Below, one piece after another: positions 35,401 through 63,509 of a DNA stretch of 64,000 nt. The notes under the pieces are model-generated. The model did not search any database. It saw nothing but the letters and a program-made list of their open reading frames with translations, and was not told the DNA's origin. How positions within the stretch are numbered: position 1 is the first letter of the stretch; every line of letters begins with the position of its first letter. A program made the position numbers and the translations under genes. The DNA comes from Candidatus Harrisonbacteria bacterium. Lineage in GTDB: Bacteria; Patescibacteriota; Minisyncoccia; UBA6257; UBA11618. The DNA lies in NCBI GenBank assembly GCA_016867415.1, contig VGJO01000001.1:80052-144051 (forward strand), in the 5' to 3' direction.

Positions 35401-35864
35401 CTGCTGATCCGAAGGGTGATGTTGATGTAGCAAGAGTCGAGTTCGAAGTGTCCGTGAGCAACGCTACTATTACTGCTGACAGTATTGTGGTTCGATATGC
35501 TGGGAGCAATATCACGCTTTCAACGTCCACTATCATTGCGGCAAATCCTTCTACCACTACCGCTTCGGGTACCATTTCGTTCACTACTCCGGAGAGAATC
35601 AGCGCCGGCCAGTCTAAGACCTACTCTGTGTTCTTGACTGTTGGGGCGGTTGGTTCCGGATCTGCGTCGCTTGTCACCAAGCTTCTCAGAGACGAAACAG
35701 CTTTTGCCACTCCGGCCTCCCGCGCGAGCTTGGACGTTACTGCGAATTCCTTCGTATGGAGCGATCGCGGTATCTCGCCTCACAGCGTGAGCACTGCCGA
35801 CTTTCACAATGGCTTCAGAGTGAAGACTCTTCCCTCTGGCGCCAAGGCTTTATCTAAGAGCTAA
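32427..35864 (+). CDS. large secreted cell-surface protein: signal peptide, coiled-coil, PG_binding_1-like domain, then tandem Thr/Ser/Gly/Val-rich beta-sandwich-like repeats
   Basis: Signal peptide ...MLMPAAFA-Q. Segment GSRGTDVKYLQMLL...DSFGPRTKAAVAKFQNKY...GYWGAATRAKA resembles a peptidoglycan-binding domain. About 900 aa of repeated approximately 100-aa modules. Markedly GC-rich. Confidence 0.8.
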   Translation: MNSHFRKITSVAVSATTVAWLSGASMLMPAAFAQSVTDVASLQALIAQLTAQLAALQGSGSASTGVSVAGIPAGFQFTSNLTVGSRGTDVKYLQMLLNADSATQVAASGAGSRGLETDSFGPRTKAAVAKFQNKYASEVLTPAGLTTGTGYWGAATRAKANSIVMAGGSTTPTPTPTPGITGAVVVSLASDTPVASNVPKGASQIPFTKLVFTGNGRIDSLTFKRVGVGQTGDFVSSGINLYEGATRLTTGKTINSTSHEVNFPNLNLQVSGTRTLLLAADISSSATSGDLNGFTLISAIIDGKTQATDIRGAQIAISGASVGAATSTKQGSLSNPNVGQVAAKVSEFKITAGTAEDIMVKKIVLTNGGSMSSANLTNVTIKQSGTTLGTAAAVSGRDLFVVDFTTPLQILKGQSKNFEVFGNISPLAKRAETIKLYLDTTSDIFATGATYGYGVSMDISEFDSDSSNHHVLTLSGAEVTITFNGPVARNIPVRGQDVTLFDFSIASANNIEIRNSSFTVAIANWASGDEVTDFKVIDASTGAAVTSATTIGDSAATESVSFTDTINIAAGQTRKFLVTGDISSTMDASDTITVTLGAFGSSSIKNLDNNQFVSTSDIVPATAIAGNTQTVKAVTLDVTLSGTPASHNVVKGSSNEQLVGFNLKATSGKVRVSSLTVSASAAPGSETQVRNDLRSASLLIDGVMVGSKKSFTDEGDVSSAAFDNLNYEIEEGKTVKAVVQVDQISTDATSGNVYRAYINDLSADISATDVDGNALSLSGSVNGGDTTAGTVTVTVATPTVQISKIDDQETEEGLVVGGQEQRLAKFEVFAQYSDVRINKWRVGVNTSAAAGTTTALNEEVKEIRLYDGATLIASGVPSGSGADAGAVKFENTAGLFSVAANSTKKIEVRAMLGEVTGVTGGADTGSSIVAYSSSSDFEAVAGNTQLTTFSSTTPPIGNIKRLYRSIPTVDVSSPSSAVLTAGEVEALKFTISADPKGDVDVARVEFEVSVSNATITADSIVVRYAGSNITLSTSTIIAANPSTTTASGTISFTTPERISAGQSKTYSVFLTVGAVGSGSASLVTKLLRDETAFATPASRASLDVTANSFVWSDRGISPHSVSTADFHNGFRVKTLPSGAKALSKS

Positions 35865-36200: not shown

Positions 36201-37385
36201 ATGAATAAAAAGATGAGTAAAAAAGTTTTATTAATAATTACGCAACCCACCTGGGGCGGCGCCCAACGCCATGTCTTTGATCTCGCTCTTGGCCTAAAAG
36301 AGGAAGGTTTCAAGGTGGTGGTAGGGACAGGGAAACCCAAGTCTTCTGCTAAAGAAGACTCTCTTCTCATCGAAAAGTTAAGAGAAAAAGAAATCACCAC
36401 TCAAATCTTTTCTCATCTCACCCGTCCTATTAGACCCCTTTCAGACATTCGCGCTATTTTCGAAATCTTTTCTTTCCTCCAAAAAAATAAAATAAATATT
36501 CTCCATCTCCATAGTTCGAAGGCCGGGGTGGTGGGAGCGGTGGCCGGCTTTCTTGCTCGCACCCCTCGCCGTCTTTTTACCGCTCACGGCTTAGTGCTGA
36601 ATGAGCCTCTTCCCCGGTATCTTCATGGTCTCTATTACATCCTTGAATGGATTAGCTTCCGCCTCTCGCATCACATCATTACCGTCTCTGATTTCGACCG
36701 TCATATTGCGCTAAAAAGTCGTCTCACTTCTCCTCTTAAAATCTCCACAATCTGGAACGGCATTGATCAAAAAGTATTTACCTCTTCACTCTTACCTAAA
36801 GAGACTGCTCGAAGAAAAATTCTCTCTCTCTTTCCCCACTCCATAGATGAAAAAAACTTCATTATCGGAACCATCGCTCATTTCTACAAGAATAAGGGCC
36901 TCTCTTTTTTAGTTTCCGCGGCCGAGATCGTGGTAAAAAGTTTCCCGCAAGCCCACTTTGTCATTATAGGGAGTGAAGGTTCGGAGCGCGCTTCTATTGA
37001 GCAAAAAATAAAAGAGTGCTCACTTGAAAAAAACATTCACTTGCTAGGTTTCATAGAAAATCCCGAATCATTATTAAATAGTTTTGACCTCTATGTTTCC
37101 TCATCTCTCAAAGAAGGCCTTCCATACTCCTTAATCTCAGCTCTTTCTGCGGAAGTACCAATAGTGGCTACTCAGGTTGGTGGCTGTTCTGAAATTATTA
37201 TTAATGAAGAAAATGGACTCCTTGTCCCTCCTGCCGACGCACCTGTTCTTGCTTCTGCTATTAGCCGCTTCCTAATCTCTCCTCACCTAAAAGAAAAAAC
37301 AAGAGAAAATAATAAAGTCCGCTCCTCGCTCTTCTCCCTTTTTGAAATGATTGATAAAACTATCGCAATCTACGATAATCGCTAG
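36201..37385 (+). CDS. glycosyltransferase family 4 (GT-B)
   Basis: EGLPYSLISALSAEVPIVATQVGGCSEII..ENGLLV (E-x7-E motif region). The ORF-track N-extension from 36093 is translated repeat sequence. Confidence 0.8.
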   Translation: MNKKMSKKVLLIITQPTWGGAQRHVFDLALGLKEEGFKVVVGTGKPKSSAKEDSLLIEKLREKEITTQIFSHLTRPIRPLSDIRAIFEIFSFLQKNKINILHLHSSKAGVVGAVAGFLARTPRRLFTAHGLVLNEPLPRYLHGLYYILEWISFRLSHHIITVSDFDRHIALKSRLTSPLKISTIWNGIDQKVFTSSLLPKETARRKILSLFPHSIDEKNFIIGTIAHFYKNKGLSFLVSAAEIVVKSFPQAHFVIIGSEGSERASIEQKIKECSLEKNIHLLGFIENPESLLNSFDLYVSSSLKEGLPYSLISALSAEVPIVATQVGGCSEIIINEENGLLVPPADAPVLASAISRFLISPHLKEKTRENNKVRSSLFSLFEMIDKTIAIYDNR

Positions 37386-37389
37386 AAAT

Positions 37390-39531
37390 ATGCTCTCTAA
37401 AACAATAAAAATTCTTCTATTTCTGACCGCTCTCACTCCTCTTATCTGGTCTTCGTATTTTATTTTTCCTTACGTTTCGGCAAAGATGTTCTTTTTTCGG
37501 GGACTTATCGAGATCGCTACTCTTCTCGCTCTTATTCAAAGCATAAGTGATGAAAATCTGCGCCAAAAAGCAAAAAAGATTTTTCGCAATCCACTCTTTC
37601 TTTCCCTGTTATCCTTTCTCATTATTAGCGGAATTGCGAGCATCTTTTCGGTAAATCCTTCCATTGCTTTTTTTGGTAATCTAGAACGTGGCGAGGGTTT
37701 TATTAGTCTGGTCCACTACCTCATCTTTTTCTTTCTCCTCTGCGTATTTTTCGAAGATCGTGATTTTCTTGGATTTCTTATTAGTTCCTTCTGGGTTGGC
37801 ATCGGTGTGACGTTTTTAGGCTTTTTTCAAAGATTAGGTCTGGATAACCTTCCGTTTGTCCCGCCGTATAAACCTGATTTTGATTCCACTTTAGGGAATA
37901 GAGCTTATGTAGCGGGTTATAGTCTTTTCCTTATCGGTTCTTCTCTTTTCTTATTTTTAGAAAAGAATACTCGCTCTTTCATGAGATATTGGTACGGCGG
38001 GGGAATTATTCTATTCTCTATTCTTCTCTTACTTACTAATAATAGAGGTTCTCTCGTCGCTCTTTTTGTATCTCTTCTTATTACTTTAGGTATTATTGCT
38101 TTTCATTCCTCTTCCCTTGTCGCCCGACGGGCGAAAATTGCTGGTATCTGTCTTGTTCTTTTTGGACTTTGTTTTTTTATTACTCGTTCTTTTCCGATAT
38201 GGCAGTACATTCCCGGACTTTCTCGTGTGGCTAATATTAGTCTCTCAGATGCTACGATGCGCACTCGCTACCTTTCTCTCATCTCTTCTCTCAATGCTTT
38301 TAAAGAGAAGCCATTATTAGGTTGGGGGAATGATCATTTCATCACTGCTTATAATAAATATTACGAACCAAGCTATGCCAGGTTTGAAAATTCCTGGTTT
38401 GATCGCGCTCATAATAAACTCGCCGAGATATTGGTAGAAACCGGCCTTATTGGTCTTCTCGCCTACTTAAGCATTTTTCTCTTTGTTTTTCTTTTTCTTC
38501 GGAAAGAAGGATTACGCAAAGAAACATTAATACTAGGAAGTATTTTTATTGCTTATTTTTTGCAAAATCTTTTTCTTTTTGATCACCCGACAAGTTATCT
38601 TCTTTTCTACTTCTTTCTTGCGTTTCTCATTATTCGAAGTAAAGAAGAAGTAAAAAATATTCCTTCCTCTCAACCTCTCTCATTCTCTTTTATTCCCCTT
38701 GGAGGCCTTGTAATATATCTCCCCCTTCTTCTCTACTGTTTTACATATCTTGAGGCAAAGCCGATCAAAGCTGCCTATGCCGCAAACATGCTTTCCCAAA
38801 AAGACTCTCTTTGGAATGAAAAGCCGGAGTTAATAAATATGGTAATAACTGGCTCTAGTTTTTCTAAAATAGATACGCATCGCTTTCTTATGGGCTTTAT
38901 AAATAGCCGAGGTTTGTTTATGAATAAAGCTTGGCAATCTAAACTTTTCCCATTTCTCCATTCATATGAGGGTTTAGTAATAGATAATAAGTACGACCCC
39001 CGAATAAATATTAGTCTCTCCGATGCCTATGAAGACCTGGGAGAAAAAGATCCCGGCTTTCTTGATAAAAAGCTCCAGGTTTTGGAATCAGCTCTCCCAC
39101 TTGCCCCGCGTCGCCAAGATCTTTTTTATGAGCTCGCTTTTGCTCATTCTCTAAAAAAAGAAAACGAAAAAGCGATAGAGATTGCCCGCTCCGCCATCGC
39201 ACTTGATCCCGAAGTCGCCCGCGCTCACTATGTGTTAAGCGCCATTCTTTATCTTGCGAAGGCTGATAAAGAAGAGAGTATCAGGGAGCTTGCACTTACT
39301 TTCGAGTACCCTGGCGCTTTCTTAAGTAGCCAGGACCAAGAAAATATAAAAAACATTCTCATCACCTACCTTGCTAATTCGGTAAAGAGTCGAGATGAAA
39401 AAGGTGTGACAAGCACGGCAACTCTCCTAAAAAAAGTCATCCCGGAAAAAATAGGAGAGTTCGATCAAATCATCGCTCTTGGCAAAGCTCATAACTGGTA
39501 CGCCCTGGAATATGGCCTTGATATCAAGTGA
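37390..39531 (+). CDS. Wzy_C (O-antigen ligase/PglL-like) polytopic membrane protein with C-terminal TPR-like domain (paralog of 29164-31035)
   Basis: YYEPSYARFENSWFDRAHNKLAEILVETGLIGLLAY motif, about 12 TM segments, C-terminal helical repeat region. Confidence 0.7.
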   Translation: MLSKTIKILLFLTALTPLIWSSYFIFPYVSAKMFFFRGLIEIATLLALIQSISDENLRQKAKKIFRNPLFLSLLSFLIISGIASIFSVNPSIAFFGNLERGEGFISLVHYLIFFFLLCVFFEDRDFLGFLISSFWVGIGVTFLGFFQRLGLDNLPFVPPYKPDFDSTLGNRAYVAGYSLFLIGSSLFLFLEKNTRSFMRYWYGGGIILFSILLLLTNNRGSLVALFVSLLITLGIIAFHSSSLVARRAKIAGICLVLFGLCFFITRSFPIWQYIPGLSRVANISLSDATMRTRYLSLISSLNAFKEKPLLGWGNDHFITAYNKYYEPSYARFENSWFDRAHNKLAEILVETGLIGLLAYLSIFLFVFLFLRKEGLRKETLILGSIFIAYFLQNLFLFDHPTSYLLFYFFLAFLIIRSKEEVKNIPSSQPLSFSFIPLGGLVIYLPLLLYCFTYLEAKPIKAAYAANMLSQKDSLWNEKPELINMVITGSSFSKIDTHRFLMGFINSRGLFMNKAWQSKLFPFLHSYEGLVIDNKYDPRINISLSDAYEDLGEKDPGFLDKKLQVLESALPLAPRRQDLFYELAFAHSLKKENEKAIEIARSAIALDPEVARAHYVLSAILYLAKADKEESIRELALTFEYPGAFLSSQDQENIKNILITYLANSVKSRDEKGVTSTATLLKKVIPEKIGEFDQIIALGKAHNWYALEYGLDIK

Positions 39532-39608: not shown

Positions 39609-40754
39609 ATGGAATCTTCAGTTAAAAAAATACTAATTGCCTCAGGTATTTTTTCGCCTGAAATTGGAGGTCCCGCTACCTTCTCAAAAATCATTCTCAA
39701 TGAATATCAAAAAAGTGAGAAAATAGATCCAATTGTTCTCTCCTACTTCCTTCCTCATCATGCATCCCAAGATTCGCGTGTTTTTAGTGTTTCCAAATCT
39801 TTGCCAAAAGGCCTTCGCCATCTCATCTATTTTTACAAATGCTTATTTCTCTCTCGAAGGCGAAAACTAGTCCTTGCCCTCGATCCAGTCTCTGCCGGCT
39901 TACCCGCCCTTCTCTCCTCTTTCTTTATGGGAAATAAGTTTCTCGTTCGCATCGCCGGTGACTATGCCTGGGAAGAAGGCTCTCGTCGCTTTGGCGTGAC
40001 AGATACGCTCGATGATTTTCAAAAAAAATCCTATGGCCTTCGAGTCGAGTGGCTCCGCTCCGTCCAGAAATATGTGGCCAAGAAAGCTGAGAAAATAATC
40101 GTTCCCAGTGAGTATCTAAAAAAAATACTAGTGACCGGATGGGGGATAGGGCCGGAAAAAATCATCATAATCTACAACGCTGTTGATTTTCCTGATGCGC
40201 CCGTAGAAAAATCCCTTTCCGTTTCTCCTGCCTTCTCTCTTTTTTCTGCCGGTCGCCTTGTCTCCTGGAAGGGTTTCGACAGCTTATTAGATCTTATGCA
40301 TGAACTCCCCTCGACTATCACACTCGCGATCGCCGGCGATGGGCCGGAAGAACAATCTTTAAGAAAAAAAATAATTGATCTAGATCTTACCTCTCGGATC
40401 ACTCTCCTCGGCCGCCTAGAGAAAAAAGACTTAGTAAATAGATTAAAAGCCGCTGATCTCTTTATTTTGAATACTAAGTATGAAGGCTTTTCTCACCAAA
40501 TTCTCGAGAGTCTTGCCCTCGGCGTCCCGGTAATTACTACAAATATCGGTGGCAATCCCGAGCTTGTAAAAGAGGGTGAAAATGGTTTTCTCGTCGCGCC
40601 CGATGATATGCTTGGCTTTAAAAAAGCTATAGAAAAAATAAGCACTGATAAGTCTCTCTACGCTCACCTTAGCAAGAATGCTTTGCAAGTCCGCCACCTT
40701 TTCTCAAAAAATCGCCTCATTACTGATTTTGAAAATTTGATAAAAAACATATGA
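39609..40754 (+). CDS. glycosyltransferase family 4
   Basis: EGFSHQILESLALGVPVITTNIGGNPELVKEGENGFLV. Confidence 0.8.
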   Translation: MESSVKKILIASGIFSPEIGGPATFSKIILNEYQKSEKIDPIVLSYFLPHHASQDSRVFSVSKSLPKGLRHLIYFYKCLFLSRRRKLVLALDPVSAGLPALLSSFFMGNKFLVRIAGDYAWEEGSRRFGVTDTLDDFQKKSYGLRVEWLRSVQKYVAKKAEKIIVPSEYLKKILVTGWGIGPEKIIIIYNAVDFPDAPVEKSLSVSPAFSLFSAGRLVSWKGFDSLLDLMHELPSTITLAIAGDGPEEQSLRKKIIDLDLTSRITLLGRLEKKDLVNRLKAADLFILNTKYEGFSHQILESLALGVPVITTNIGGNPELVKEGENGFLVAPDDMLGFKKAIEKISTDKSLYAHLSKNALQVRHLFSKNRLITDFENLIKNI

Positions 40755-41890
40755 AAGTTCTAATGATATCAATTGACAAGGGGATTTTAGATCGAAATAC
40801 TCCAGCGGGAAAAAGAATGAAAGAATATTCCGAGCTTTTCGACGAGCTTGTGATTATTGTTTTTGCAAAAAAAGGAAAAGGGAGTGGTTACGAAAATGGC
40901 AGGCTAAAAGTTTTTTCTTCTGATTCTCTTTCTAAAGTTTTTTATTTCTGGGACGCTTGGAAAATAATCCGTCGCCTGCGAATAAATAAAGATTGGGTTA
41001 TCACCTCCCAAGACCCCTACGAGACCGGTCTCTTCGCGCTCCTTGTGAAGTGGTGGTATAAGGTTCCGCTTGAGATGCAGATCCACGTCGATATCTTCTC
41101 TCCGTATTTCAAACATTTGAGTTTTCGCAACCGATTTCGCGCCTGGCTTGCAAAGCAGACCCTTCCGTTTGCTACTCGCGTCCGCGCCGTCGCCTCTCGG
41201 GTCAAGCAATCAATTATCGATCAAAAGCTTCTCCTGCCAGAAAAAATCACCGTCATTCCCGTCCCGACTAATAACGAAGAGATACGAAAAAAATCCTCCG
41301 CCTTTTCCCTCAAAGAAAAATACCCAGGGTTCGCGCATTACTTTCTCATCGTCTCCCGCCTCGCTCCCGAAAAAAACATCCCGCTTGCGATTGAGGCCTT
41401 TGCCGAAGTCATCCAAAAATATCCCGAAGCCTTTCTTCTCATTGTTGGCAAAGGAAGTGAGGAGAATTCTTTAAAAAAGTTAGTTTTTCGCTTGAAATTG
41501 GAAAAAAACATTTGCTTTGAGTCCTGGACCTCTGATCCTTTTTCCTACATGAAGACCGCCGACATTTTCCTTCTCCCTTCCCTCTACGAAGGCTGGGGCC
41601 TCTCTGCCATTGAGTCTCTCGCCTGCGGCCTCCCTATCATTATGACCGACGTCGGCTGTGCTGGTGAGGTAGTGCGAGATGGCAAAAATGGCCTCATTGT
41701 TCCGGTGGCGGACAAAATAGCTCTCCAAAAAGCTATGGAAAAAGTAATAAAAGATTCCTCCCTCCTTTCCTCCCTCAAAGCCGGCACTCATGCCACTGAT
41801 TTTTCTCGTATAGAGAAGCCAGAGATTCTAAAAGCCCTGAAAGAAAATCTGGAGAAAACCGCCGCCTCTTTCCTCTTCCATAAATCATAA
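40751..41890 (+). CDS. glycosyltransferase family 4
   Basis: EGWGLSAIESLACGLPIIMTDVGCAGEVVRDGKNGLIV. 4-nt overlap with the upstream gene (operon). Confidence 0.8.
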   Translation: MKVLMISIDKGILDRNTPAGKRMKEYSELFDELVIIVFAKKGKGSGYENGRLKVFSSDSLSKVFYFWDAWKIIRRLRINKDWVITSQDPYETGLFALLVKWWYKVPLEMQIHVDIFSPYFKHLSFRNRFRAWLAKQTLPFATRVRAVASRVKQSIIDQKLLLPEKITVIPVPTNNEEIRKKSSAFSLKEKYPGFAHYFLIVSRLAPEKNIPLAIEAFAEVIQKYPEAFLLIVGKGSEENSLKKLVFRLKLEKNICFESWTSDPFSYMKTADIFLLPSLYEGWGLSAIESLACGLPIIMTDVGCAGEVVRDGKNGLIVPVADKIALQKAMEKVIKDSSLLSSLKAGTHATDFSRIEKPEILKALKENLEKTAASFLFHKS

Positions 41891-41912: not shown

Positions 41913-44021
41913 ATGCGCGTTCTCGTCTTTTCTACCGATGATTTTCTTCCTCCCGCTGGTGGCGCCGAGCTTGCTTTAGGTGAGATTATCCGCCATCTTC
42001 CCGAAGTTCAGTTTGAAGTCATCTCTGCCAAAATCCACCGAGGTCCTCGCCCCACAAATATCCCAAAAAACGTCACTATCCGTCACATTGGCTGGGGATT
42101 TTGGCCTCTCCTCGACAAACTTCTACTCGTTCTTTTAGGGCCCTCTATAGCCTATAAAAGCCATAAGAAAGCCCCTTTTGATCTAGTCTGGTCCATGATG
42201 GCCTCCTATAGTGCTTTTGCTGCCCGAATCTTCAAAAAGAAGGCTAAAACCCCCTATCTTCTCACCCTGCAGGAGGGAGATCCGATTACTCGGCCCCTAT
42301 ACCGCATTTTGAAGCGCTTAGGGCTCTTTGGACCGCTTTTTTCCGATGCCAACGCCCTCCAACCTATCTCTCATTTTCTCTCTCGCTGGGGTCATTTTAT
42401 GGGCTTTAAAGGGCCTGTAGAGGCTATCATTCCCAATGGCGTTGATACTGATCATTTTTCGAGAGAAATCTCCGCCGCCGAGCGGGAGAAGCACCGCTCC
42501 TCTTTTGGTTTTCCTCCTGATGCCCTCATTCTCATTTCCGTCTCCCGCTTTGTCGCCAAAAATGGCCTTGCGGACATCATTCGCGCTCTCCCTCTTCTTC
42601 CCGAAAAAGTTTGTCTTGTTCTCTGCGGTTTTGGTGATCTAGATCAATCACTCCGCGATCTTGTCGCGCGTCTAGATCTTGAGCATCGTGTTCACTTTTT
42701 TGGTTCTTGTTCTCACACTCATCTTCCCGCCGTCCTTTCCGCCACCGATATCTTCATTCGCCCGTCTTTGAGTGAAGGGCTAGGTAATTCTTTTCTCGAA
42801 GCCATGGCCTGCAGCCTGCCAGTAATTGGCACTAAAGTAGGTGGCATCCCGGATTTTCTTGAGGATGGAAAGACTGGTTTTTTTTGTCTTCCCGAAAATC
42901 CCGAAAGCATAAAAGACACAGTACTAAAAATAATAAACTCCAATCCTGCTCGTCTTACCGAAATAAAAAAATCCGCCAAAGATTTGGTTATCAAAAAATA
43001 CAATTGGCGCTTGATAAGCAGTGGGATGAAGAATCTTTTCGAAAAGACGCAAGCGATTACCCCTCTCTGTCTAGAAAAACCTCTCTTCATCCTCTCGCTC
43101 GACGTCGAGCTTGCCTGGGGTATGAAGGGTTCAAAAAGATTTTTCCACCAATACGAAAAAAAGCGGGAAGTAGTCGATAAGCTTCTACAGCTTTTTGAAA
43201 AGTACGACATCCCCGCCACCTGGGCGGTGGTTGGGCATCTCTTTCTTGATAGCTGCGCCCCCGTCTCGGGCGTGAAGCATCCAGAAATTATTCGACCAAA
43301 AAAAGAGGGTACGAATGACTGGTTTGAAATTGATCCCTGTACCTCTATTACCACTCACCCTTTTTGGTATGGCAAAGATATTGTGGGAAAAATCATTAAG
43401 TCAGAAAAGCAAGAGCTCGCCTGCCATACCTTCTCGCATGTATACATGGATTTCCCCTCTCTTACCAAAGACTGGTTTGAAAGTGAATTAGCGGAATGTC
43501 AGCGGCTTGCCAAAGATCATGGCCGATCTCTAACTTCTTTTATCTTTCCGCAAAACAAAATCCGTTTTGTAGATAGTCTCGCCCCCCATGGCTTCACCGC
43601 TTACCGCGCTCCTGATGACAATTGGTATAGTTCTTTAAGAGGACTCCTGAAGCGTATCGCTCATGTGATTGATGATTATTTGTGCTTGCCTGTTCGTTCC
43701 GTCCTCCCTTATAAAGACAATGATCTCATCGCCATCCCCGGCAGTTATTTCTACGTCCATAAAGTCGGCTGGGCGCGTTTTCTCCCCGTCTCCTTTCGAG
43801 TAAAAAAAGCCAAGTGGGGGATAGATGATGCAATAGAGACCGGTAAAATATTTCACCTCTGGACTCACCCTTTTAATCTCACGGATAAAGATGGTAAGCT
43901 CCTTGCCGGTCTCGAAGAAATCCTGCGCTACGTCGCCGAAAAAAGACGACAAGGAAAAATCTCTATTACCTCTATGAACAAAGTTAATAATTTTTTAAAA
44001 AATAATGAAAACTCTAAGTAG
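41913..44021 (+). CDS. bifunctional GT4 glycosyltransferase (N-terminal) / polysaccharide deacetylase, NodB-like (C-terminal) fusion
   Basis: N-terminal half: EGLGNSFLEAMACSLPVIGTKVGGIPDFLEDGKTGF. C-terminal half: LDVELAWG, ATWAVVGHLF, CHTFSH His motif of NodB-type deacetylases. Confidence 0.7.
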   Translation: MRVLVFSTDDFLPPAGGAELALGEIIRHLPEVQFEVISAKIHRGPRPTNIPKNVTIRHIGWGFWPLLDKLLLVLLGPSIAYKSHKKAPFDLVWSMMASYSAFAARIFKKKAKTPYLLTLQEGDPITRPLYRILKRLGLFGPLFSDANALQPISHFLSRWGHFMGFKGPVEAIIPNGVDTDHFSREISAAEREKHRSSFGFPPDALILISVSRFVAKNGLADIIRALPLLPEKVCLVLCGFGDLDQSLRDLVARLDLEHRVHFFGSCSHTHLPAVLSATDIFIRPSLSEGLGNSFLEAMACSLPVIGTKVGGIPDFLEDGKTGFFCLPENPESIKDTVLKIINSNPARLTEIKKSAKDLVIKKYNWRLISSGMKNLFEKTQAITPLCLEKPLFILSLDVELAWGMKGSKRFFHQYEKKREVVDKLLQLFEKYDIPATWAVVGHLFLDSCAPVSGVKHPEIIRPKKEGTNDWFEIDPCTSITTHPFWYGKDIVGKIIKSEKQELACHTFSHVYMDFPSLTKDWFESELAECQRLAKDHGRSLTSFIFPQNKIRFVDSLAPHGFTAYRAPDDNWYSSLRGLLKRIAHVIDDYLCLPVRSVLPYKDNDLIAIPGSYFYVHKVGWARFLPVSFRVKKAKWGIDDAIETGKIFHLWTHPFNLTDKDGKLLAGLEEILRYVAEKRRQGKISITSMNKVNNFLKNNENSK

Positions 44022-44159: not shown

Positions 44160-45320
44160 ATGACTTGTCTAATTCTCGACGCTCATCTTCATAGCGCTCT
44201 TTCTACCGTTCGATCTTTGGGTAAAAAAAATAGTAAGATTTTTTCTGCTTCTGACACCCGGCTCGCCCCCAGCTTTTTTTCCCGCTACTCAGTAAAAAAT
44301 TTTCTCTACCCTTCTCCTCTCAAAGATGAATCTGCTTTTATAAAAAAAATAACTTCCATTCTAGAAAGTCTTAAGGACGATTGTCTTATATATATTTTCA
44401 GCGAGACTACTCTTTTGCCTCTTTCCCGAAACAGGAATAAACTGCCAAAAAATACCCGTCTTATTCTCGGCTCTCTCGAAAATGTCGAGCTCGCCTCCGA
44501 CAAAGCCGCTACTCTCACTCTTGCGGCAGAAAATAATATCCCCATTCCCCAAACTTTCTTTCCCGGTTCTTTCGCTGAAGCTCAAAACTTTCTCTCCAAA
44601 ATTCCCTACCCCTGCATTGTGAAGCCTCGCCATAACTGCGTCTGGAAAGATGGTGCCTCTGTCTATGAGACCGCCCATCTTGTCGAGACGAAAGAAGAGG
44701 CGGAAAAAATCTGGCGGGAACTTTTTAATGCTTCCGGTGAACCGCCCCTTATTCAAGAAAGAGTAGTTGGTGAAGAGCGAGGAATCTTCACCTTCGCAGT
44801 AAAAGGGGAGGGCTTTGCTTGGTTTGCGCATAAGCGGCTTGAGTCTTTAAAGAAGTTAGGTGGCGCAAGTATCCTCCGAGAAAGCATAGAAGTAGATCCT
44901 AAGCTTAAAAGTTATTCTGAATTACTTATAAAAAAACTTGATTGGACCGGCCCTCTTATGATTGAGTGGAAGTGGGATGAAAATGCTAAGAGGTATCTCC
45001 TCATGGAGATCAATGCCCGTTTCTGGGGTTCTCTGCCGCTTGCTGTTGCCTCAGGGGTAGACTATCCCGCACTCATGCTTGATTTCGCAGTCGGACAATC
45101 GCTTCCTAATGAAGTTACTTATAAGATTAGTATCCGTTCCCGCCATTTCTTTGGCGCTCTAAGAAGTCTCCTTCGAGCAAAGACGTGGAGAGATTTTCAG
45201 AAGCTCTGGCAAATAATGTGGGGGGAAAAAACGATTGATGATGTTTTCTCTTTCTCCGATCCCCTCCCTTTTCTTGGAGAAGTTCTATTTATTGGTAAAA
45301 CATTTATATGGAAAAAATAA
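44160..45320 (+). CDS. ATP-grasp superfamily ligase
   Basis: CIVKPRHNCVWKDGASVY, GEERGIFTFAVKG, LMIEWKWDE..YLLMEINARFWGS. Characteristic ATP-grasp B/C subdomain motifs. Confidence 0.65.
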   Translation: MTCLILDAHLHSALSTVRSLGKKNSKIFSASDTRLAPSFFSRYSVKNFLYPSPLKDESAFIKKITSILESLKDDCLIYIFSETTLLPLSRNRNKLPKNTRLILGSLENVELASDKAATLTLAAENNIPIPQTFFPGSFAEAQNFLSKIPYPCIVKPRHNCVWKDGASVYETAHLVETKEEAEKIWRELFNASGEPPLIQERVVGEERGIFTFAVKGEGFAWFAHKRLESLKKLGGASILRESIEVDPKLKSYSELLIKKLDWTGPLMIEWKWDENAKRYLLMEINARFWGSLPLAVASGVDYPALMLDFAVGQSLPNEVTYKISIRSRHFFGALRSLLRAKTWRDFQKLWQIMWGEKTIDDVFSFSDPLPFLGEVLFIGKTFIWKK

Positions 45321-46096
45321 TTGGCGTCGCTCACATCCACTCCCGCTTTTCCTATGATGGCAAGCTCTCTTTGCCTGAGCTAAAATCACTTTTTCAAAAA
45401 AACAATCTTCGCTTTGCTTTAGTCTCCGAGCACGAAGATGATTTTGATGAGAAAAAATGGATTGCTTTAGTAGAGGAGTGCCAAAAGCTAAGCGATGATA
45501 GTTTTCTTTTCATCCCTGGTCTGGAGATAAACTACGCTGGCGGTCACGTCCTCTGCTTTGGCCTCAATCAGCCAATCTCTTATATGAAAGGGATAGAGAC
45601 TTTAAAAGAAGCAAATAAAGCCGGCGCACTCATTGTGTTTGCGCACCCTCATCGCAGTAGATATAGAGTAGGGGAGGAGCTTCAGCAAATAATAAACGGC
45701 GTTGAAATCTGGAATTCGCACTATGATGGCAAATGGTCGCCTCGATTTCTTTCATATAAACTCTGGCAAAAAGTAAACAGAGAGGATAAAAAAATCTTCG
45801 CCTTTGCCGGCCTCGATTTTCATGATCTTCATCATCTCCACGGGCCACGACTAGAAGTAGCATCTTCTTTTTCGATAGAGGCAATTCTTAAAGCGCTTAT
45901 ATCGGGAAGCTTTGTGATTAAAAAAGATGAAAAAATAATCTCCGCTTTTCCCGATCTTAATATGTTTCCTCTTTTTATAAAAAGTTTCCTCTCTCTTTGC
46001 ATTCTCGGTGGTTATAAATTCGCTGGCAATATATTCTCCTTTTTCCCAAAAAGTTGGAAGAGAAAGATAAAACTATCCTTAAGAAAAAATCTTTAA
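45308..46096 (+). CDS. PHP-family metal-dependent phosphoesterase (CpsB-like)
   Basis: GVAHIHSRFSYDG N-terminal His motif, VSEHED, FAHPHR. Size about 260 aa, as for PHP tyrosine phosphatases. Overlaps the upstream gene by 13 nt. Confidence 0.55.
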   Translation: MEKIIGVAHIHSRFSYDGKLSLPELKSLFQKNNLRFALVSEHEDDFDEKKWIALVEECQKLSDDSFLFIPGLEINYAGGHVLCFGLNQPISYMKGIETLKEANKAGALIVFAHPHRSRYRVGEELQQIINGVEIWNSHYDGKWSPRFLSYKLWQKVNREDKKIFAFAGLDFHDLHHLHGPRLEVASSFSIEAILKALISGSFVIKKDEKIISAFPDLNMFPLFIKSFLSLCILGGYKFAGNIFSFFPKSWKRKIKLSLRKNL

Positions 46097-46100: not shown

Positions 46101-46958
46101 ATGAATGCAAAACAAAAAAGCGTCCCCTACTTTATAGGCATCGGCGGTCAGCGCTGTGGCACTTCCTGGACCTATGCCTGCCTCTTCGAGCATCCTGAGA
46201 TCTGCGCTCCCGAAAAAGAAATTCACTTCTTCAGCCGTGATCAAAAATTTTCTCAAGGCTACGATTGGTATGAGTCTTTTTTTAAAAACTGTGGTGCTAA
46301 AAAAGCCGGAGAGTTTTCCACTTCCTATATTTCTGATCCTCGTGTCGCCGAGCGTATCGCCGCTCGTTACCCAGAGATAAAAATTATTGCCATCCTAAGA
46401 AACCCCGTCGATCGAGCAGTTTCTAACTATTTCAATGACCTCGCCTCCGGCAAAGTCGAGAAAAGCATCTCCTTCGATGAAGCGCTTCAAAATCACCCAG
46501 AGTACATTGATCAAGGGCTGTACGGAAAGCACCTAGAGCCTTTCTTCAAAGCTTTTTCAAAAAAACAGATCCTTATTCTCCGTTATGAAGATTCGCTAAC
46601 AAACCCCGAGGAGTTTATTCGATCCATCTATCAATTTTTAGAGGTCGATTCTTCATTCAAACCTTCCTATTTGAAAAAGAAGGTAAATGTGAGCCGCGTC
46701 CCGACTTTTGTGGGTCTTGATAACGCTTTCCTAAAAATATCTTCTTTCTTAAGAAAGAGTGGTCTCACCTCCCTCTGGTGGCTTATCAAAAAATCCGGCC
46801 TTCCCAGACTCATCCTTTGGGCAAACACTAGCGAGCAAAGAGGGGAAACGGAATCTCTTCGCCTAAAAAAAGAAACCAAAGAATATCTTCAGTCTATCTT
46901 CGCCTCCGACAAGCAAAAACTCACTTCCCTAACCGGCATAAATTTCCCCAACTGGTAA
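46101..46958 (+). CDS. sulfotransferase-family protein
   Basis: FIGIGGQRCGTSW (5'-PSB-like P-loop of PAPS-dependent sulfotransferases). RNPVDRAVS 3'-PB-like region. Confidence 0.6.
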   Translation: MNAKQKSVPYFIGIGGQRCGTSWTYACLFEHPEICAPEKEIHFFSRDQKFSQGYDWYESFFKNCGAKKAGEFSTSYISDPRVAERIAARYPEIKIIAILRNPVDRAVSNYFNDLASGKVEKSISFDEALQNHPEYIDQGLYGKHLEPFFKAFSKKQILILRYEDSLTNPEEFIRSIYQFLEVDSSFKPSYLKKKVNVSRVPTFVGLDNAFLKISSFLRKSGLTSLWWLIKKSGLPRLILWANTSEQRGETESLRLKKETKEYLQSIFASDKQKLTSLTGINFPNW

Positions 46959-47019: not shown

Positions 47020-47715
47020 ATGACTCTCACTAATAAAAAAAGGATTCTCTGCTTCCATGACGTGCTTGATTCCGATATCTTCGAGTCTCGCCTTTTGCTT
47101 TGCAAAAAATTAGGCTTCCAGTTTATATCTCTGGCCAAACTTTTAGATAACAAGACTGCCGGTCCCGCTCTCGCCGTTACCTTTGATGACGGCTATCAAT
47201 CTGTGTATCAAAATGCTCTGCCTATTTTACGCAAACTTCACATCCCCGCCACTTTTTTCATAACCAATGATTTTATTGGCCTCAAGGAAGACGCTCTAAA
47301 AAGCTTTTTGAAAAATAATCTTCTCCGCTCTTCCTACCGTGAGCCCATGTCCTGGGAAGAAGTAGGAAAAATCGCTTCTGATCCTCTTTTTGAAATCGGC
47401 GCTCACACCGCCTCCCATCCCCGTTTGAATGATAAGTATCCGAAAGAATTAGCCGAAAAAGAAATAATCGAAGCCGGTGATAATCTCGAAAAAAAGATCA
47501 GTAAAAAAATCCGCTACTTCGCCTTCCCTTTCGGCGACAGTGATAGTGCTGGTAAAGCCGCTCGATCTCTCGTCCGCACTCGCTATGAGGCCGCCTTTTC
47601 TATTATTCCAGGAAAGATTAGCGGAAATGAAACTGATACGTCATTTCTTCCCCGTCACAGCCTCGACCCTGAAAGAAATATTCTAGTTTGGCTTTTTCAT
47701 TTATTATTTTTGTAA
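47020..47715 (+). CDS. polysaccharide deacetylase (NodB homology domain)
   Basis: AVTFDDGYQSV (TFDDG motif), IGAHTASHP (HxxxH). Confidence 0.75.
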   Translation: MTLTNKKRILCFHDVLDSDIFESRLLLCKKLGFQFISLAKLLDNKTAGPALAVTFDDGYQSVYQNALPILRKLHIPATFFITNDFIGLKEDALKSFLKNNLLRSSYREPMSWEEVGKIASDPLFEIGAHTASHPRLNDKYPKELAEKEIIEAGDNLEKKISKKIRYFAFPFGDSDSAGKAARSLVRTRYEAAFSIIPGKISGNETDTSFLPRHSLDPERNILVWLFHLLFL

Positions 47716-48937: not shown

Positions 48938-50770
48938 ATGTGCGCTATAAACGGCATTACCTGTAAAGATCAAAGACTGGTAGAGCAGATGAATGCGTGT
49001 CTCGCTCACCGCGGCCCTGATGGTACCGGTATTTTTGTGGACCCGATAATCACCCTGGGCCATAACCGCCTTTCTATTATTGATCTTACGAGTAATGCTT
49101 CTCAGCCTATGGTCTCCGCCTCCGGAGAAACAGTGATTTCTTTTAATGGCGAGATTTATAACTTCCGAGAGCTAAGAGAACTCTACTGCAAAAAGCAATC
49201 TTTTAAAAGCGCGAGCGACACTGAAGTAATAGTAAATCTTTATGAAATCCTGGGAGAAAAAGCCTTCTCTCTTTTGAATGGTATCTTTGCCTTCGCTCTC
49301 TTTGATAAAAAAAAGAAAAAACTTTTTCTTGTCCGTGACTCTTCAGGAGTAAAGCCTCTTTATTACTCTTGCTTGGGGGATGATGTGATCTTTTCCTCAG
49401 AAATAAAAGCCATTCTTGAAAATAAAGAAGTTCCCCGAAGGCTCAATCATGAGGCAACGGAATTTTATTTCCGCCTGGGGTTTGTCTCCGAAGAAGAAAC
49501 GCTTTTTAAAGATATTAGGAAAGTCAAAGCCGGCCATTATCTCGAGTATGACCTTGCAAAAAAAGTTTTCTCAATAAAAAAGTTTGCTGAATTTGCGATC
49601 AAAAAAGAAACCGGCAAAAAATCCGCCCCCGAGCTTGAGTCTTTAGTTCGAAACGCGGTGACACGACAGCTCGTCGCTGATGTGCCTGTCGGCGTCTATC
49701 TTTCCGGCGGTATTGATTCCAGTATTATTTTAGATGCAGTGGCGCGTACGATGACGAGTCCCAAGACCTACACCATTCGCTACGCTCTGGATAAAGACGA
49801 AGAGCCGGCAAAGTTCAATATCGACGCGGACGTGGCTTTGAGGACGAGTCGTCATTATGGCACCGATCATCATGAGCTTGTCATCTCCTCCGAAGATGTG
49901 TTGGCTAATTTTGAAGCCGCTATTTCTCACGCAGATGAGCCCATCGCTCATCCCACCTCTGTTCCCATGTTTCTTCTCTCTAAAGAAGCCAAAAAGACCG
50001 TGACCGTGATTCTGACCGGCGATGGGGGAGACGAATTATTTGGTGGCTATGAACGCTATCGTACTCTGCGTAAAATCCTTTTATATCAGAAGCTTATCCC
50101 TGAAAATCTTCGGAGTATTTTAACAAAAATACACCCCGCTCTTTCTAAGGTGAAGAGTGGTAAACCTTTAGATATCTTCGGTCTTCTTTGGTTTTCTAAG
50201 TCTCCGCTTGAAAAGATTGTAAAAAGTGAATTTCTTGATAATAAACTGATAAGAAGTATTTACTCTCCTTATCTTGCTGATAAGAGTGATCTCCATCTTA
50301 TTGAGCGCTTCATGATAGCGGAAAAAAATACTTGGCTCATCGATTTTCACCTCAATCTCGCTGACAAAATGGCTATGGCGCATGGCGTGGAAAATCGCGT
50401 GCCTTTCCTCGACAAAGAGGTGATAGAATTCGCCGAGCGTCTTCCTCTCTCGCAAAAAGTTTCTTTCTTTGATCGGAAAATCCTTTTAAAGCGGGCTTTT
50501 CGTCACTCTCTTCCCGAAGAGCTTTTTCACCTCCCTAAGCGCGGTTGGATCTCTCCCGGCGCCAAATGGCTCCGCCACCCCCGCTTCATTGGCTTTGCTA
50601 AAGAAATTTTATCTCCTTCCTATCATTCCAGCACCGCCGATCTTTTTTACTGGCCTGAGATTGAACGCATCCTAAGAAGTCATATAGAAAAAAAAGAGTA
50701 CAATCTCAATCTCATCTGGCAACTCCTCACTTTCCAAGTCTGGGCCAAGAGCTTCCACATCACTTTATAA
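48938..50770 (+). CDS. asnB: asparagine synthetase (glutamine-hydrolysing) family amidotransferase
   Basis: MCAINGI (Cys2 nucleophile), YLSGGIDSS PP-loop. Confidence 0.85.
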   Translation: MCAINGITCKDQRLVEQMNACLAHRGPDGTGIFVDPIITLGHNRLSIIDLTSNASQPMVSASGETVISFNGEIYNFRELRELYCKKQSFKSASDTEVIVNLYEILGEKAFSLLNGIFAFALFDKKKKKLFLVRDSSGVKPLYYSCLGDDVIFSSEIKAILENKEVPRRLNHEATEFYFRLGFVSEEETLFKDIRKVKAGHYLEYDLAKKVFSIKKFAEFAIKKETGKKSAPELESLVRNAVTRQLVADVPVGVYLSGGIDSSIILDAVARTMTSPKTYTIRYALDKDEEPAKFNIDADVALRTSRHYGTDHHELVISSEDVLANFEAAISHADEPIAHPTSVPMFLLSKEAKKTVTVILTGDGGDELFGGYERYRTLRKILLYQKLIPENLRSILTKIHPALSKVKSGKPLDIFGLLWFSKSPLEKIVKSEFLDNKLIRSIYSPYLADKSDLHLIERFMIAEKNTWLIDFHLNLADKMAMAHGVENRVPFLDKEVIEFAERLPLSQKVSFFDRKILLKRAFRHSLPEELFHLPKRGWISPGAKWLRHPRFIGFAKEILSPSYHSSTADLFYWPEIERILRSHIEKKEYNLNLIWQLLTFQVWAKSFHITL

Positions 50771-51829: not shown

Positions 51830-52651
51830 ATGTTTAATAAAGACTTATTTCTTTTGCAAAAAGTTACAAACACAGACGTCATTCATACGCCTTTTCCTTA
51901 TTTTGTAATAAAAAATGCATTACCCGAAAATATTGTTTCTGAACTCGTAAAAAAATTTCCTTCAACTGGAAAAATAACCAAAGGACAGAGGTACGGGAGT
52001 AATGAACGTTTTGATTATACGATAACTGATGCTGCTTCTGATTCAAGCCTCGATTCTCTATGGATAGATTTCTTAGATACGAATAGTTCAGATGTTTTTT
52101 ATGAAAAAATATTTGAGTTATTCGATAAAGATATTGCTCAGCTGTATCCCGAATTAAGTTTCCGAAAAAATAATAATTATTTAAAAAAAGGAATTCGTTA
52201 TCAAGATCCGCTTTGGGAAGACTCTATTAATTTTGATTGCCATATCTCAATAAATACCCCAGTAACAGAAAAACCTACCTCGGTAAGAAAAGTGCATGTT
52301 GATGATCCTAAAAAACTTTTCGGAGGTCTTTGGTATTTGAGAGATGATGACGATCAAAGCACGGGAGGTGATCTGGAGCTCTACGAATACATAAGAACTC
52401 CTAAAATGTTTGGGCAGCAAGTCTATGAAAACAGAGTGAAAAAAATAAAGACCGTGCCATACGAGAAAAATCTTCTTATTATATTTTTGAATTCTTTTAA
52501 TTCTCTGCACGGAGTCACTATAAGGGGAAAAACAGAAAAAACAAGAAAATTTGTAAACGTGGTGGCCGAATTAAAAAATTCTCTTTTTGATATAAATAGT
52601 TTTCAAGAAAATTTTATAGAAAGAAAAATAAGGCAAATGATAAGCAGTTAA
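51830..52651 (+). CDS. hypothetical protein, possibly 2OG/Fe(II) oxygenase-like
   Basis: HVDD (HxD) and a downstream LHGV..R. Otherwise no clear motif. Confidence 0.35.
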   Translation: MFNKDLFLLQKVTNTDVIHTPFPYFVIKNALPENIVSELVKKFPSTGKITKGQRYGSNERFDYTITDAASDSSLDSLWIDFLDTNSSDVFYEKIFELFDKDIAQLYPELSFRKNNNYLKKGIRYQDPLWEDSINFDCHISINTPVTEKPTSVRKVHVDDPKKLFGGLWYLRDDDDQSTGGDLELYEYIRTPKMFGQQVYENRVKKIKTVPYEKNLLIIFLNSFNSLHGVTIRGKTEKTRKFVNVVAELKNSLFDINSFQENFIERKIRQMISS

Positions 52652-52672
52652 TAAAATAAAGATTAGCTTGAT

Positions 52673-53458
52673 ATGTTTCAAAAAATAACGAAAACTATTT
52701 ATCGAATTCTAATCCCATCTTTTATAGAAAGGGGAGCTGATCCGGAAAAAGAGAGCTTAAGAAAATTTATAGAAACGGTAGCGGCAAAAGAAATAAGAGC
52801 GAAAGAGCGGATGTTAGATGCCGGAGCTGGGTTTAAAAGATATGAGGGTTTTTTTAAGCACGCAATATATGAATCGACTGATTTTGAAGATATTTTCAAT
52901 AAAGATTTTAAAAATAAACACACATTCGTTTGTAGTCTAGATAATATCCCAGTGGCTGATAATACATACGATGCAATTATAAATAATCAGGTTCTGGAGC
53001 ACGTAAAGTATCCTAAAAAAGTTTTAGAAGAGCTATTTCGAATACTAAAGCCTGGAGGGAAGATATTTGTTACGGTCCCTCAAATCTCTCATGTCCACGG
53101 AGCGCCTTACAATTTTTTCTTTTTTACTAATTTCGGCTTAGAACTTCTTCTAAAAGAGACAGGTTTCAGAATCATTTCTATTAAACCTCGAGGAGGTATC
53201 TTTTTTGTGATTGCTAAATGGATGAATGTCTTTTCCGATTATTTGTTCTATCAGCACGTCTTTAATGGATGGAAGAGAAATATCTCTTTCAAACCTGAAA
53301 AAACAGGCAGGGTAAAATTTTATCTTTTATTCCCTTTTTATTTTATTTCTAGAATAGTGATTGGCGAGTGGGGCGCTTATTGCGTCTCAAAGTTAGATTT
53401 TCTAGATAAGCAGAAAAACTTCACTCTTGGTTATTCTGTTTATTGTATAAAGCCTTAA
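52673..53458 (+). CDS. class I SAM-dependent methyltransferase
   Basis: MLDAGAGFKRY (motif I), LKPGGKIFVTVP (post-II). Confidence 0.65.
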   Translation: MFQKITKTIYRILIPSFIERGADPEKESLRKFIETVAAKEIRAKERMLDAGAGFKRYEGFFKHAIYESTDFEDIFNKDFKNKHTFVCSLDNIPVADNTYDAIINNQVLEHVKYPKKVLEELFRILKPGGKIFVTVPQISHVHGAPYNFFFFTNFGLELLLKETGFRIISIKPRGGIFFVIAKWMNVFSDYLFYQHVFNGWKRNISFKPEKTGRVKFYLLFPFYFISRIVIGEWGAYCVSKLDFLDKQKNFTLGYSVYCIKP

Positions 53459-53465
53459 TCTCTCG

Positions 53466-55590: not shown

Positions 55591-55610
55591 AATACCTATG
55601 TTTTTTCACT

Positions 55611-59824: not shown

Positions 59825-59839
59825 AATAAAGAAGATAGC

Positions 59840-60469: not shown

Positions 60470-60500
60470 TCCTCATTTCGAAGAAAAAAGGTCCTTAACT

Positions 60501-60527
60501 AGGAGGCGATGTCCGCCTCCTTTTTTT
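60501..60527 (+). terminator. intrinsic terminator
   Basis: Stem aggaggcg/cgcctcct, 5-nt loop, T7. Confidence 0.75.
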
Positions 60528-60589
60528 ATAGAAATATTTGAAAAAAAGGCAAAATTACCTATAATTAGCTTTGTTTAAAGAAAGTAGTC

Positions 60590-61690: not shown

Positions 61691-61702
61691 TTTCAGCTTT
61701 TC

Positions 61703-63438: not shown

Positions 63439-63509
63439 AGTTTTATTTTGCCATTTTTTGGTATAAACTCTCTAAAGACTAAGAAATATAAGGAATAAAT
63501 AAAAGGTAT

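Follow-up and report, generated by a model that had tools for sequence, protein, structure and literature searches.

In the MshA/MshB, BshA/BshB and PIG-A/PIG-L systems, a GT4 glycosyltransferase transfers N-acetylglucosamine (GlcNAc) and a dedicated metal-dependent deacetylase then uncovers the amine; in the mycothiol and bacillithiol routes, this amine is acylated afterwards. Here, we describe a 702-amino-acid protein of Candidatus Harrisonbacteria bacterium in which a GT4 glycosyltransferase is joined in one polypeptide to a domain with the fold of the NodB deacetylases. The protein is encoded in a 64,000-nucleotide stretch (the window; positions 80,052 to 144,051 of the forward strand of contig VGJO01000001.1, assembly GCA_016867415.1). 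The fusion of a glycosyltransferase with a deacetylase has a precedent, since Streptomyces MatB (SCO2962/SLI_3306) has been described as one polypeptide with a NodB-like deacetylase and a glycosyltransferase (PMC4391728). The PgaC/PgaB and IcaA/IcaB pairs can be grouped with MatB among the closest known systems.

Two further described pathways bear on the genes found beside this fusion. In the Wbp/Vim system of Porphyromonas and Tannerella, the proposed role of VimE, a putative CE4 deacetylase, is to take the 2-N-acetyl group off a sugar, after which VimA acylates the exposed amine with Ser or Gly; a putative glycosyltransferase, VimF, is found alongside and the AsnB-type WbpS amidates the uronate (PMC7468200). 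In Campylobacter jejuni, Cj1438, a capsule GT2 fused to an ATP-grasp amidoligase, forms a sugar amide from a phosphorylated amine, and a separate phosphatase, Cj1435, afterwards removes the phosphate (PMC11800379).

The fused gene and its glycosyltransferase half

The open reading frame (ORF) runs on the forward strand from an ATG at 41913 to 44021, without interruption and with one terminal stop. A GT4 glycosyltransferase domain of GT-B fold, supported by Pfam PF00534, Foldseek and phmmer, takes up residues 1-378 (41913..43046), followed by a linker, TQAITPLCLEK, at residues 379-389 (43047..43079) and a NodB-fold (CE4-superfamily, 'NodB1.2'-like) domain, a putative metal-dependent de-N-acylase, at residues 390-702 (43080..44018). 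The protein is identical to a public entry, 'MAG: glycosyltransferase [Candidatus Harrisonbacteria bacterium]'. The same 702-residue product is encoded, beside the same gene neighbours, on contigs from independent samples (JGI 3300020198, SRR7990525 and SRR7052762) built by different assemblers (6 contigs read).

The junction, ...MKNLFEK-TQAITPLCLEK-PLFILSLDVELAWG, aligns with the C-terminal tail of the GT4 protein and the N-terminal tail of the deacetylase where relatives carry two genes, and the linker is homologous to both tails. In one such split example (L002), the GT4 protein ends in '...NIFNELTGGKN' before its stop and the deacetylase then starts with 'MEELPIKLEKGIFILSLDMELAWG'. Compared with the split versions, the linker is shorter and the start codon is gone; no in-frame ATG, GTG or TTG is found from the end of the GT4 domain to D397, so that an intact C-terminal domain could only be produced within the fusion. 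GC content and GC at third codon positions (GC3) are alike in the two halves. Full-length fused homologues with 44-48% identity were also found, namely P0002 (639 amino acids), P0003 (657) and P0004 (686); P0002 was recovered from two Hainich groundwater assemblies and one Logan run and P0004 from more than one sample (JGI 3300014208, ENA ERZ27249449). Although the two genes of relatives abut or overlap, so that an error of 1-2 nucleotides could merge them, a sequencing or assembly frameshift is rejected as having a negligible chance of being correct, because at least three independent samples, processed with different assemblers, gave an identical protein, the other fused lineages (P0002; P0003/P0004) were each found in more than one sample, and the linker is shortened and lacks a start codon. 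The 702-residue ORF is thus a genuine single gene, an end-to-end fusion of two neighbouring pathway genes.

The N-terminal half is a standard GT-B/GT4 enzyme. Pfam places Glycos_transf_1 (PF00534) at residues 191-353 with 125 bits against a cutoff of 26.4 (E 2.9e-36) and also matches Glyco_trans_1_4 (PF13692; 103.9 bits, E 1.2e-29), while Glyco_transf_4 (PF13439), at residues 16-180, falls slightly below its 28.5-bit cutoff with 27.5 bits. The E288-x7-E296 motif (E288-GLGNSFL-E296; 42774..42800, forward strand) is conserved in the fused homologues. An AlphaFold2 (AF2) model of the full-length protein reached a predicted local distance difference test score (pLDDT) of 93.6, with about 83 over the linker, and a predicted template modelling score (pTM) of 0.83. 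In a Foldseek search, this model scored a TMt of 0.86 to HepE and 0.75-0.84 to BshA, MshA and PimB'; over about 390 columns, the values for HepE, BshA and MshA were 0.82-0.86, as for a GT-B fold. No solved structure covering both halves was found by Foldseek against the PDB. The best phmmer matches in the PDB were to BshA, which uses UDP-GlcNAc (2jjm, 3mbo; E 4e-19), followed by PimB' and MshA, and all matches to NCBIfam equivalogs (TuaC, BshA, EpsE, MshA and others) fell far below their cutoffs.

The initial annotation, made from the sequence alone, had read this ORF as a single polypeptide that joins a GT4 enzyme to a NodB-type deacetylase. The first part is borne out by the uninterrupted 702-residue frame, closed only by its terminal stop, and by the identical product in independent samples. 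The motifs that it had quoted were found for both the GT4 half (EGLGNSFLEAMACSLPVIG at residues 288-306 and DGKTGF at 318-323) and the NodB-like half (LDVELAWG at 396-403, ATWAVVGHLF at 435-444 and CHTFSH at 504-509). The domain search that it had proposed as a check likewise supports the GT4 half and, above cutoff, a C-terminal Polysacc_deac_1. The NodB-type assignment holds for the fold but not for a canonical CE4 enzyme, given a D-x-E first motif, the lack of RxPY and a predicted cytoplasmic location.

Orthologues of the GT4 half in other Patescibacteria (45-48% identity) have different partners. Proteins of about 870 amino acids (P0011, P0013, P0016, P0024 and similar) are fused to an NAD-dependent nucleotide-sugar epimerase/dehydratase, and tandem GT4-GT4 proteins of about 750-765 amino acids also occur (P0243 and similar). 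In this lineage, the GT4 seems to have become fused to its pathway partners unusually often.

The C-terminal NodB-fold domain

Sequence searches place the C-terminal half at the edge of the known deacetylases. Polysacc_deac_1 matches residues 418-546 with 27.8 bits in the full protein (E 2.6e-6); the isolated domain scores 29.6 bits, and the cutoff is 23.1. This match lies, like the Pfam matches of the GT4 half, far beyond chance; its score is marginal, and for most relatives no Pfam call had been precomputed. PDB sequence searches returned HpPgdA only, again marginally (phmmer E 0.041; hidden Markov model profile E 0.0038), so that structure prediction was needed for a firm fold assignment. 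An AF2 model of the domain, built from 72 homologues, reached a pLDDT of 95.7 and a pTM of 0.93 and has the NodB fold, a distorted beta/alpha barrel, with 3RXZ, HpPgdA and PuuE-type proteins as the nearest structures. A 2024 review classes 3RXZ, 3QBU, 1Z7A and 3S6O as 'NodB1.2', a group in which most proteins lack an experimentally identified substrate and which holds the closest relatives of ArnD (PMC10967932). Compared with the NodB1.2 structures, the domain has an insertion of 40-50 residues (~445-495) with conserved C, H, W and D residues.

HpPgdA binds its metal, Zn, through D14, H86 and H90 and its catalytic water through D12 and H247, unlike PuuE, an allantoinase with a metal-independent active site (PMC3084791). 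A profile of the present family was aligned with HpPgdA by hhalign, after the HpPgdA sequence had been checked against PDB entry 3qbu; the alignment covered domain residues 41-320, without the N-terminal D-x-E segment. Motif 2, the metal-ligand motif H-x3-H, is found as H505-T-F-S-H509 (43425..43439, forward strand), which hhalign pairs with H86 and H90, and H505 is kept in 213 and H509 in all 214 of the 214 relatives compared. H652, in H648-L-W-T-H652 (43854..43868, forward strand), is paired with H247 and is the equivalent of the motif-5 catalytic His; all 214 relatives keep H648, H652, R565 and P546, and 212 of them keep E501. At the end of strand beta1, the equivalent of motif 1 reads L-D397-V-E399 (D-x-E) rather than the canonical TFDD (D397-V-E399 at 43101..43109, forward strand), with D397 as candidate catalytic base and E399 as candidate acidic metal ligand. 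Each of these two residues is present in 209 of the 214 relatives, and the remaining five show no substitution but gaps caused by truncation or trimming. Motif 3, RxPY, is absent in that its strand reads S-F-I-F-P546-Q-N548, without Arg, and an invariant Arg, R565, sits one strand after this position. The 'DVE' motif had raised the suspicion of a PEP-CTERM-type polysaccharide deacetylase, which was rejected as the C-terminal half gave no NCBIfam match at E <= 0.1.

Because the catalytic-type residues are near-invariant in the 214 members, the domain appears to be a working metal-dependent deacylase and not a pseudoenzyme. It is predicted to be cytoplasmic, unlike typical extracytoplasmic CE4 enzymes, because it is fused behind a cytoplasmic GT-B enzyme and because its stand-alone relatives start 10-20 residues ahead of strand beta1, without a leader.

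Gene module and proposed pathway

The family of the C-terminal module is large, with 889 matches in an indexed search, mostly stand-alone proteins of about 320 amino acids, and at least 579 species-representative genomes with the module among Patescibacteria, Chloroflexota, Acidobacteriota, Bacillota, Actinomycetota, Planctomycetota and others. One member adjoins a GT4 gene in the cultured Lutispora saccharofermentans (Bacillota; L017), which provides an experimentally tractable entry to the family. In close relatives of the window locus, the two genes are separate, with an overlap of 8 nucleotides (L001) or gaps of 1 (L002) and 3 nucleotides (L003); L011 and L030 are likewise split, with genes that adjoin or overlap. 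Arrangements and co-occurrence were counted over the 80 best species loci: a GT4 gene was fused to the CE4-like gene in 2, abutted it upstream in 14 and downstream in 4, lay elsewhere within ~6 kb or less in 35, and was absent from the locus in 25. In an exhaustive search of 1.84 billion representatives at 50% identity, P0002 was the only full-length strong match (603 bits; next 372), and further fused clusters were P0264, P0357, P0380 and, in reverse order (CE4::GT4) and outside CPR, P0249.

In neighbor-joining (NJ) trees, each of three fused lineages of the candidate phyla radiation (CPR) is nearer to split versions than to other fused ones. The window protein is nearest to L001, L003 and L010 (50-53% identity) and L006 is nearest to L001 (55-60%), while L004 is nearest to the split L030 (66-71%) and to L022 (65-68%), which carries a fusion of CE4 to ATP-grasp instead. 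Since each fused lineage groups nearer to split versions, and with GT4 and CE4 trees that are broadly congruent, the sequences suggest that the GT4::CE4 fusion arose independently at least three times in a co-evolving gene pair.

Downstream of the fusion, on the same strand, are an ATP-grasp ligase (ATPgrasp_Ter/PRK12767-like by Pfam and NCBIfam; 44160..45320) and a 262-residue metallohydrolase of the PHP superfamily with an N-terminal HxH...SxDG motif (45308..46096). The latter matches TM0559/2anu by phmmer (E 8.7e-6) and, below cutoff, the NCBIfam CehA/McbA metallohydrolase domain (E 4.7e-17), and its orthologues have weak Pfam PHP matches. The order GT4, CE4-like, ATP-grasp, PHP is found in the window and in L003, L004/L025, L006, L010, L011, L013, L015, L022 and L030, and wherever a cassette-type locus includes sequence downstream of the deacetylase gene, the ATP-grasp gene follows. 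Of the 80 species loci, 8 have an ATP-grasp orthologue, and exactly these 8 have a PHP orthologue; an orthologous GT4 is present in 7 of them. Literature searches found nothing specific on this GT4/CE4/ATP-grasp/PHP cassette in CPR or Patescibacteria.

The same genes are joined in other ways elsewhere. CE4::ATP-grasp fusions occur in L022 (688 amino acids; 990-3056), P0245 and P0290, and CE4::ATP-grasp::PHP fusions in L012 (969 amino acids; 5986-8895) and P0244, with those of L022 and L012 confirmed by Pfam; L012 thus has the three downstream members in one ORF, without a GT4 of orthologous score. These alternative fusions serve as Rosetta stones that tie the four genes into one pathway. Outside CPR, the CE4-like module is fused to S-adenosylmethionine (SAM) methyltransferases (L028, L041, P0310), to a GNAT enzyme (Acetyltransf_6; P0342) and to NTP_transf_5 (L018, P0278), and in L024 it is fused to another GT4 subtype. 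Most of these fusion partners are enzymes that could derivatize an amine.

Some loci deserve separate mention. The GNAT fusion P0342 might, by analogy, parallel the pairing of VimE with VimA. L012, L013 and L015 are labelled 'uncultured Gammaproteobacteria', yet their cassette is most similar to those of CPR, which reflects either a wrong taxonomy or horizontal transfer. In L009 (8001-9983; P0005, 660 amino acids), the CE4-like module is tandemly duplicated without a GT4; a formyltransferase and a hexapeptide acetyltransferase lie directly upstream of this gene, and a GT4+Bac_transf fusion and a DegT aminotransferase downstream, a context that by analogy suggests removal of an N-formyl or N-acetyl group on a different amino sugar.

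We favor, with a probability of roughly 0.55, a pathway in which the GT4 adds an N-acyl-hexosamine, the NodB-fold domain deacylates it, the ATP-grasp enzyme re-acylates it and the PHP enzyme trims the product. The GT4 domain would transfer a sugar, most likely an N-acetyl- or other N-acyl-hexosamine from a uridine diphosphate (UDP) donor. The acceptor, on the cytoplasmic side, would be a lipid-linked or growing glycan made by a large surface-polysaccharide or glycoconjugate cluster. The tethered NodB-fold domain, as a predicted metal-dependent amidohydrolase whose proposed active site consists of a base (D397), an acid (H652) and three metal ligands (E399, H505 and H509), would then strip the N-acyl group from the same sugar. 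The ATP-grasp ligase would join a carboxylate, for example an amino acid, to the freed amine, and the adduct would lose a phosphate or another group through the PHP-type metallohydrolase. The initial annotation had proposed that one enzyme adds a sugar and then de-N-acetylates it to leave residues of GlcN or GalN type. These two steps are plausible, but the freed amine is probably an intermediate and not the end product, because the downstream ATP-grasp gene is conserved and, in other genomes, forms one ORF with the deacetylase domain. That the module as a whole installs an N-aminoacyl or N-acyl hexosamine in a CPR surface glycan, through transfer, de-N-acetylation, ATP-dependent re-acylation and hydrolytic trimming, is a more tentative proposal.

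Several points weigh against this pathway. The equivalence of D397 and E399 with D12-I-D14 of HpPgdA is one of position and conservation, since these residues lie outside the hhalign local alignment, and Glu stands in motif 1 where CE4 enzymes place a metal-binding Asp. Literature searches turned up no characterized member of the D-x-E subfamily, and among the nearest solved relatives, PuuE has a non-carbohydrate substrate and HpPgdA is inactive on GlcNAc and chitotriose (PMC3084791). The donor specificity of the GT4 is not readable from its sequence, its BshA and MshA matches being generic in strength, and for the PHP-like protein both a phosphoesterase and an amidohydrolase/esterase activity are conceivable. 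Gene order and fusions leave the order of reactions unfixed, and the trees of each half are simple NJ trees without bootstrap support.

The strongest alternative, which we consider possible but clearly less probable, is that the NodB-fold domain, ATP-grasp and PHP enzymes act on a nucleotide-activated sugar and that the GT4 transfers the finished sugar. UDP-HexNAc(A), that is a UDP-bound N-acetylhexosamine or its uronic acid, would for example be converted to UDP-HexN(A) and then to an N-acyl derivative, so that the fusion would join the first and the last steps. To our knowledge, the characterized enzymes of the CE4 superfamily (ArnD, PgaB, IcaB, NodB and PgdA) act after transfer, as do the GT4-coupled deacetylases MshB, BshB and PIG-L. 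By comparison, the nearest structures of the domain (HpPgdA, PuuE and 3RXZ) have closed pockets that fit small substrates, the 870-residue orthologues with an epimerase/dehydratase show that fusion partners of this GT4 can precede transfer, and in the Wbp/Vim pathway the order of VimE and VimA relative to glycosyl transfer is not settled (PMC7468200). The CE4::ATP-grasp fusions fit either order equally.

It is improbable that the C-terminal domain is something other than an N-deacetylase, whether an O-acetyl esterase, an ArnD-like N-deformylase, a PuuE-like amidohydrolase, a GH57-like glycosidase or a non-catalytic binding module. PuuE-type proteins are among its nearest structures and ArnD is a close relative of the NodB1.2 group, but a non-catalytic role is at odds with the near-invariant catalytic-type residues. 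A GH57-like glycosidase, although a structural neighbor, was set aside as NodB1.2 proteins score much higher, and it is also opposed by the conserved His and acidic set that matches the deacetylase metal site.

Very unlikely is a soluble small-molecule route like those of mycothiol and bacillithiol, in which GlcNAc would be added to a small, possibly phosphorylated acceptor instead of a glycan, the PHP enzyme would dephosphorylate, the NodB-fold domain deacetylate and the ATP-grasp enzyme add an amino acid. The four activities of the module do correspond one-to-one with MshA, MshA2, MshB and MshC, the best solved sequence matches of the GT4 half are to BshA (2jjm, 3mbo, 5d00), with MshA matched too, and the nearest structures of the deacetylase are enzymes of small substrates. 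However, the GT4 matches are generic (~20% identity) and below all NCBIfam equivalog cutoffs including those of BshA and MshA, the cassette loci with enough flank are embedded among further glycosyltransferases, and Wzy_C, flippase or Bac_transf genes are present in the window, L004 and L006. There is an equally slim chance that Patescibacteria, organisms of minimal metabolism, re-invented the mycothiol/bacillithiol route with this quartet of non-homologous enzymes, which would imply a previously unknown GlcN-based product, such as a low-molecular-weight thiol or compatible solute.

Surrounding glycan cluster and comparison with known systems

The fused gene lies in one glycan cluster, at ~36-63.5 kb of the window, which comprises GT4 genes, a Wzy_C/TPR gene, a sulfotransferase, a canonical NodB, two AsnB-type amidotransferases, a GT2, methyltransferases, a flippase, a KpsF-like isomerase and a dTDP-glucose-dehydratase-like enzyme. 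All features located below are on the forward strand. Upstream of the fusion, a 726-residue protein of the Wzy_C (O-antigen ligase/polymerase) family with C-terminal TPR repeats (37351-39531) is a candidate polymerase, ligase or PglL-like O-oligosaccharyltransferase; its gene is conserved in L004 and L006, where it likewise precedes the fused gene. Two GT4 genes, assigned by Pfam, follow it (39609-40754 and 40751-41890). A promoter and terminator scan of 36-48 kb gave counts at or below shuffled expectation and did not inform on operon structure. Just upstream of the cluster, a large ORF of 1145 amino acids (32427-35864) has no Pfam match; a homologue (phmmer E 1.8e-40) occupies the same place upstream of Wzy_C/TPR in L004/L005, and L006 has a large protein with a weak PG_binding_1 match at the equivalent position. 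This ORF may encode a conserved surface protein linked to the glycan.

Downstream of the module, a sulfotransferase of the Sulfotransfer_1 family (46101-46958) adjoins a canonical stand-alone NodB deacetylase of the TFDDG/HTASH type (47020-47715). By analogy, this pair resembles the logic of a split N-deacetylase/N-sulfotransferase (NDST) and may point to N-sulfated amino sugars in glycans of bacteria. In L049 (3557-5523), L086 (5423-7999), L082 and L035, loci that belong to Dehalococcoidia, SAR202 and Acidobacteriota, CE4-like genes too have homologues of the sulfotransferase next to them or close by. The two AsnB-type glutamine amidotransferases (48938-50770 and 57968-59824) similarly hint at uronamide residues in the glycan, as WbpS-type enzymes convert uronic acids to uronamides. 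Across 52001-64000, the distal part of the cluster, GC content falls from ~0.42-0.47 to ~0.33-0.36; this segment holds the flippase, KpsF-like isomerase, second AsnB, dehydratase, GT4 and methyltransferase genes and may represent a part of the locus that varies or was gained by horizontal transfer.

Both domain families, the logic of a glycosyltransferase followed by a deacylase and the fusion of adjacent pathway genes were already known, and the fused protein is public, annotated only as 'glycosyltransferase'. What is new is the joining of a soluble GT4 to a cytoplasmic, non-canonical NodB1.2-like domain, apparently not characterized before, together with a D-x-E NodB subfamily that is large, unnamed and GT4-associated, and a module of four enzymes in CPR bacteria, from whose alternative fusions a re-acylated amino sugar of the surface glycan can be predicted. 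The remark of the initial annotation that this is not a standard architecture is correct as to rarity, with a handful of 50%-identity clusters among 1.84 billion, though less so as to its nature, which is that of a simple, recurrent end-to-end fusion; its question of whether homologues are fused or split is answered by mostly separate, abutting genes that are fused in a few lineages.

MatB differs from the window protein in having an N-terminal canonical NodB domain, which acts on an exported polymer of the poly-N-acetylglucosamine (PNAG) type, and a C-terminal, processive, membrane-bound, PgaC-like GT2, whereas here a soluble GT4 comes first and a non-canonical NodB-fold domain, predicted to be cytoplasmic, follows; the present fusion is thus not of MatB type. 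In the MshA/MshB, BshA/BshB and PIG-A/PIG-L systems, the deacetylases MshB, BshB and PIG-L are of the LmbE/PIG-L fold rather than the NodB fold, the enzymes are separate proteins, and the products are small molecules or glycosylphosphatidylinositol (GPI) anchors. The solved NodB1.2 proteins (M. smegmatis 3RXZ, H. pylori HpPgdA 3QBU and the PuuE-type 1Z7A, 3CL6 and 3S6O) share 16-20% identity with the domain described here; they have D-x-D where it has D-x-E, and none of them is fused to a glycosyltransferase or reported here beside one.

The Wbp/Vim system, compared by pathway logic only, resembles the window cluster also in the two AsnB-type genes of the latter; its re-acylation enzyme is GNAT/Fem-like, whereas an ATP-grasp enzyme is the candidate here, and its proteins are unfused. 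Cj1438 and Cj1435 parallel the ATP-grasp and PHP pair, although the ATP-grasp of Cj1438 is TupA-like, the Cj1435 phosphatase is HAD-type, the carboxylate comes from glucuronic acid (GlcA) and no deacetylase is involved. For Patescibacteria, whose envelopes are almost uncharacterized, the alternative fusions yield a testable prediction, namely a surface-glycan amino sugar with its N-acetyl group replaced by another substituent. ArnC and ArnD, the undecaprenyl phosphate-L-Ara4FN (Und-P-L-Ara4FN) synthase and deformylase of polymyxin resistance, share the logic of transfer followed by deacylation, but ArnC is a membrane GT2 and not a GT4, the two are separate proteins, ArnD removes a formyl group, and the system has no ATP-grasp or PHP partner. 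The pairing of a NodB-fold subfamily with D-x-E, H-x3-H and H motifs with intracellular GT4 enzymes would extend ArnD-type logic well past polymyxin resistance.

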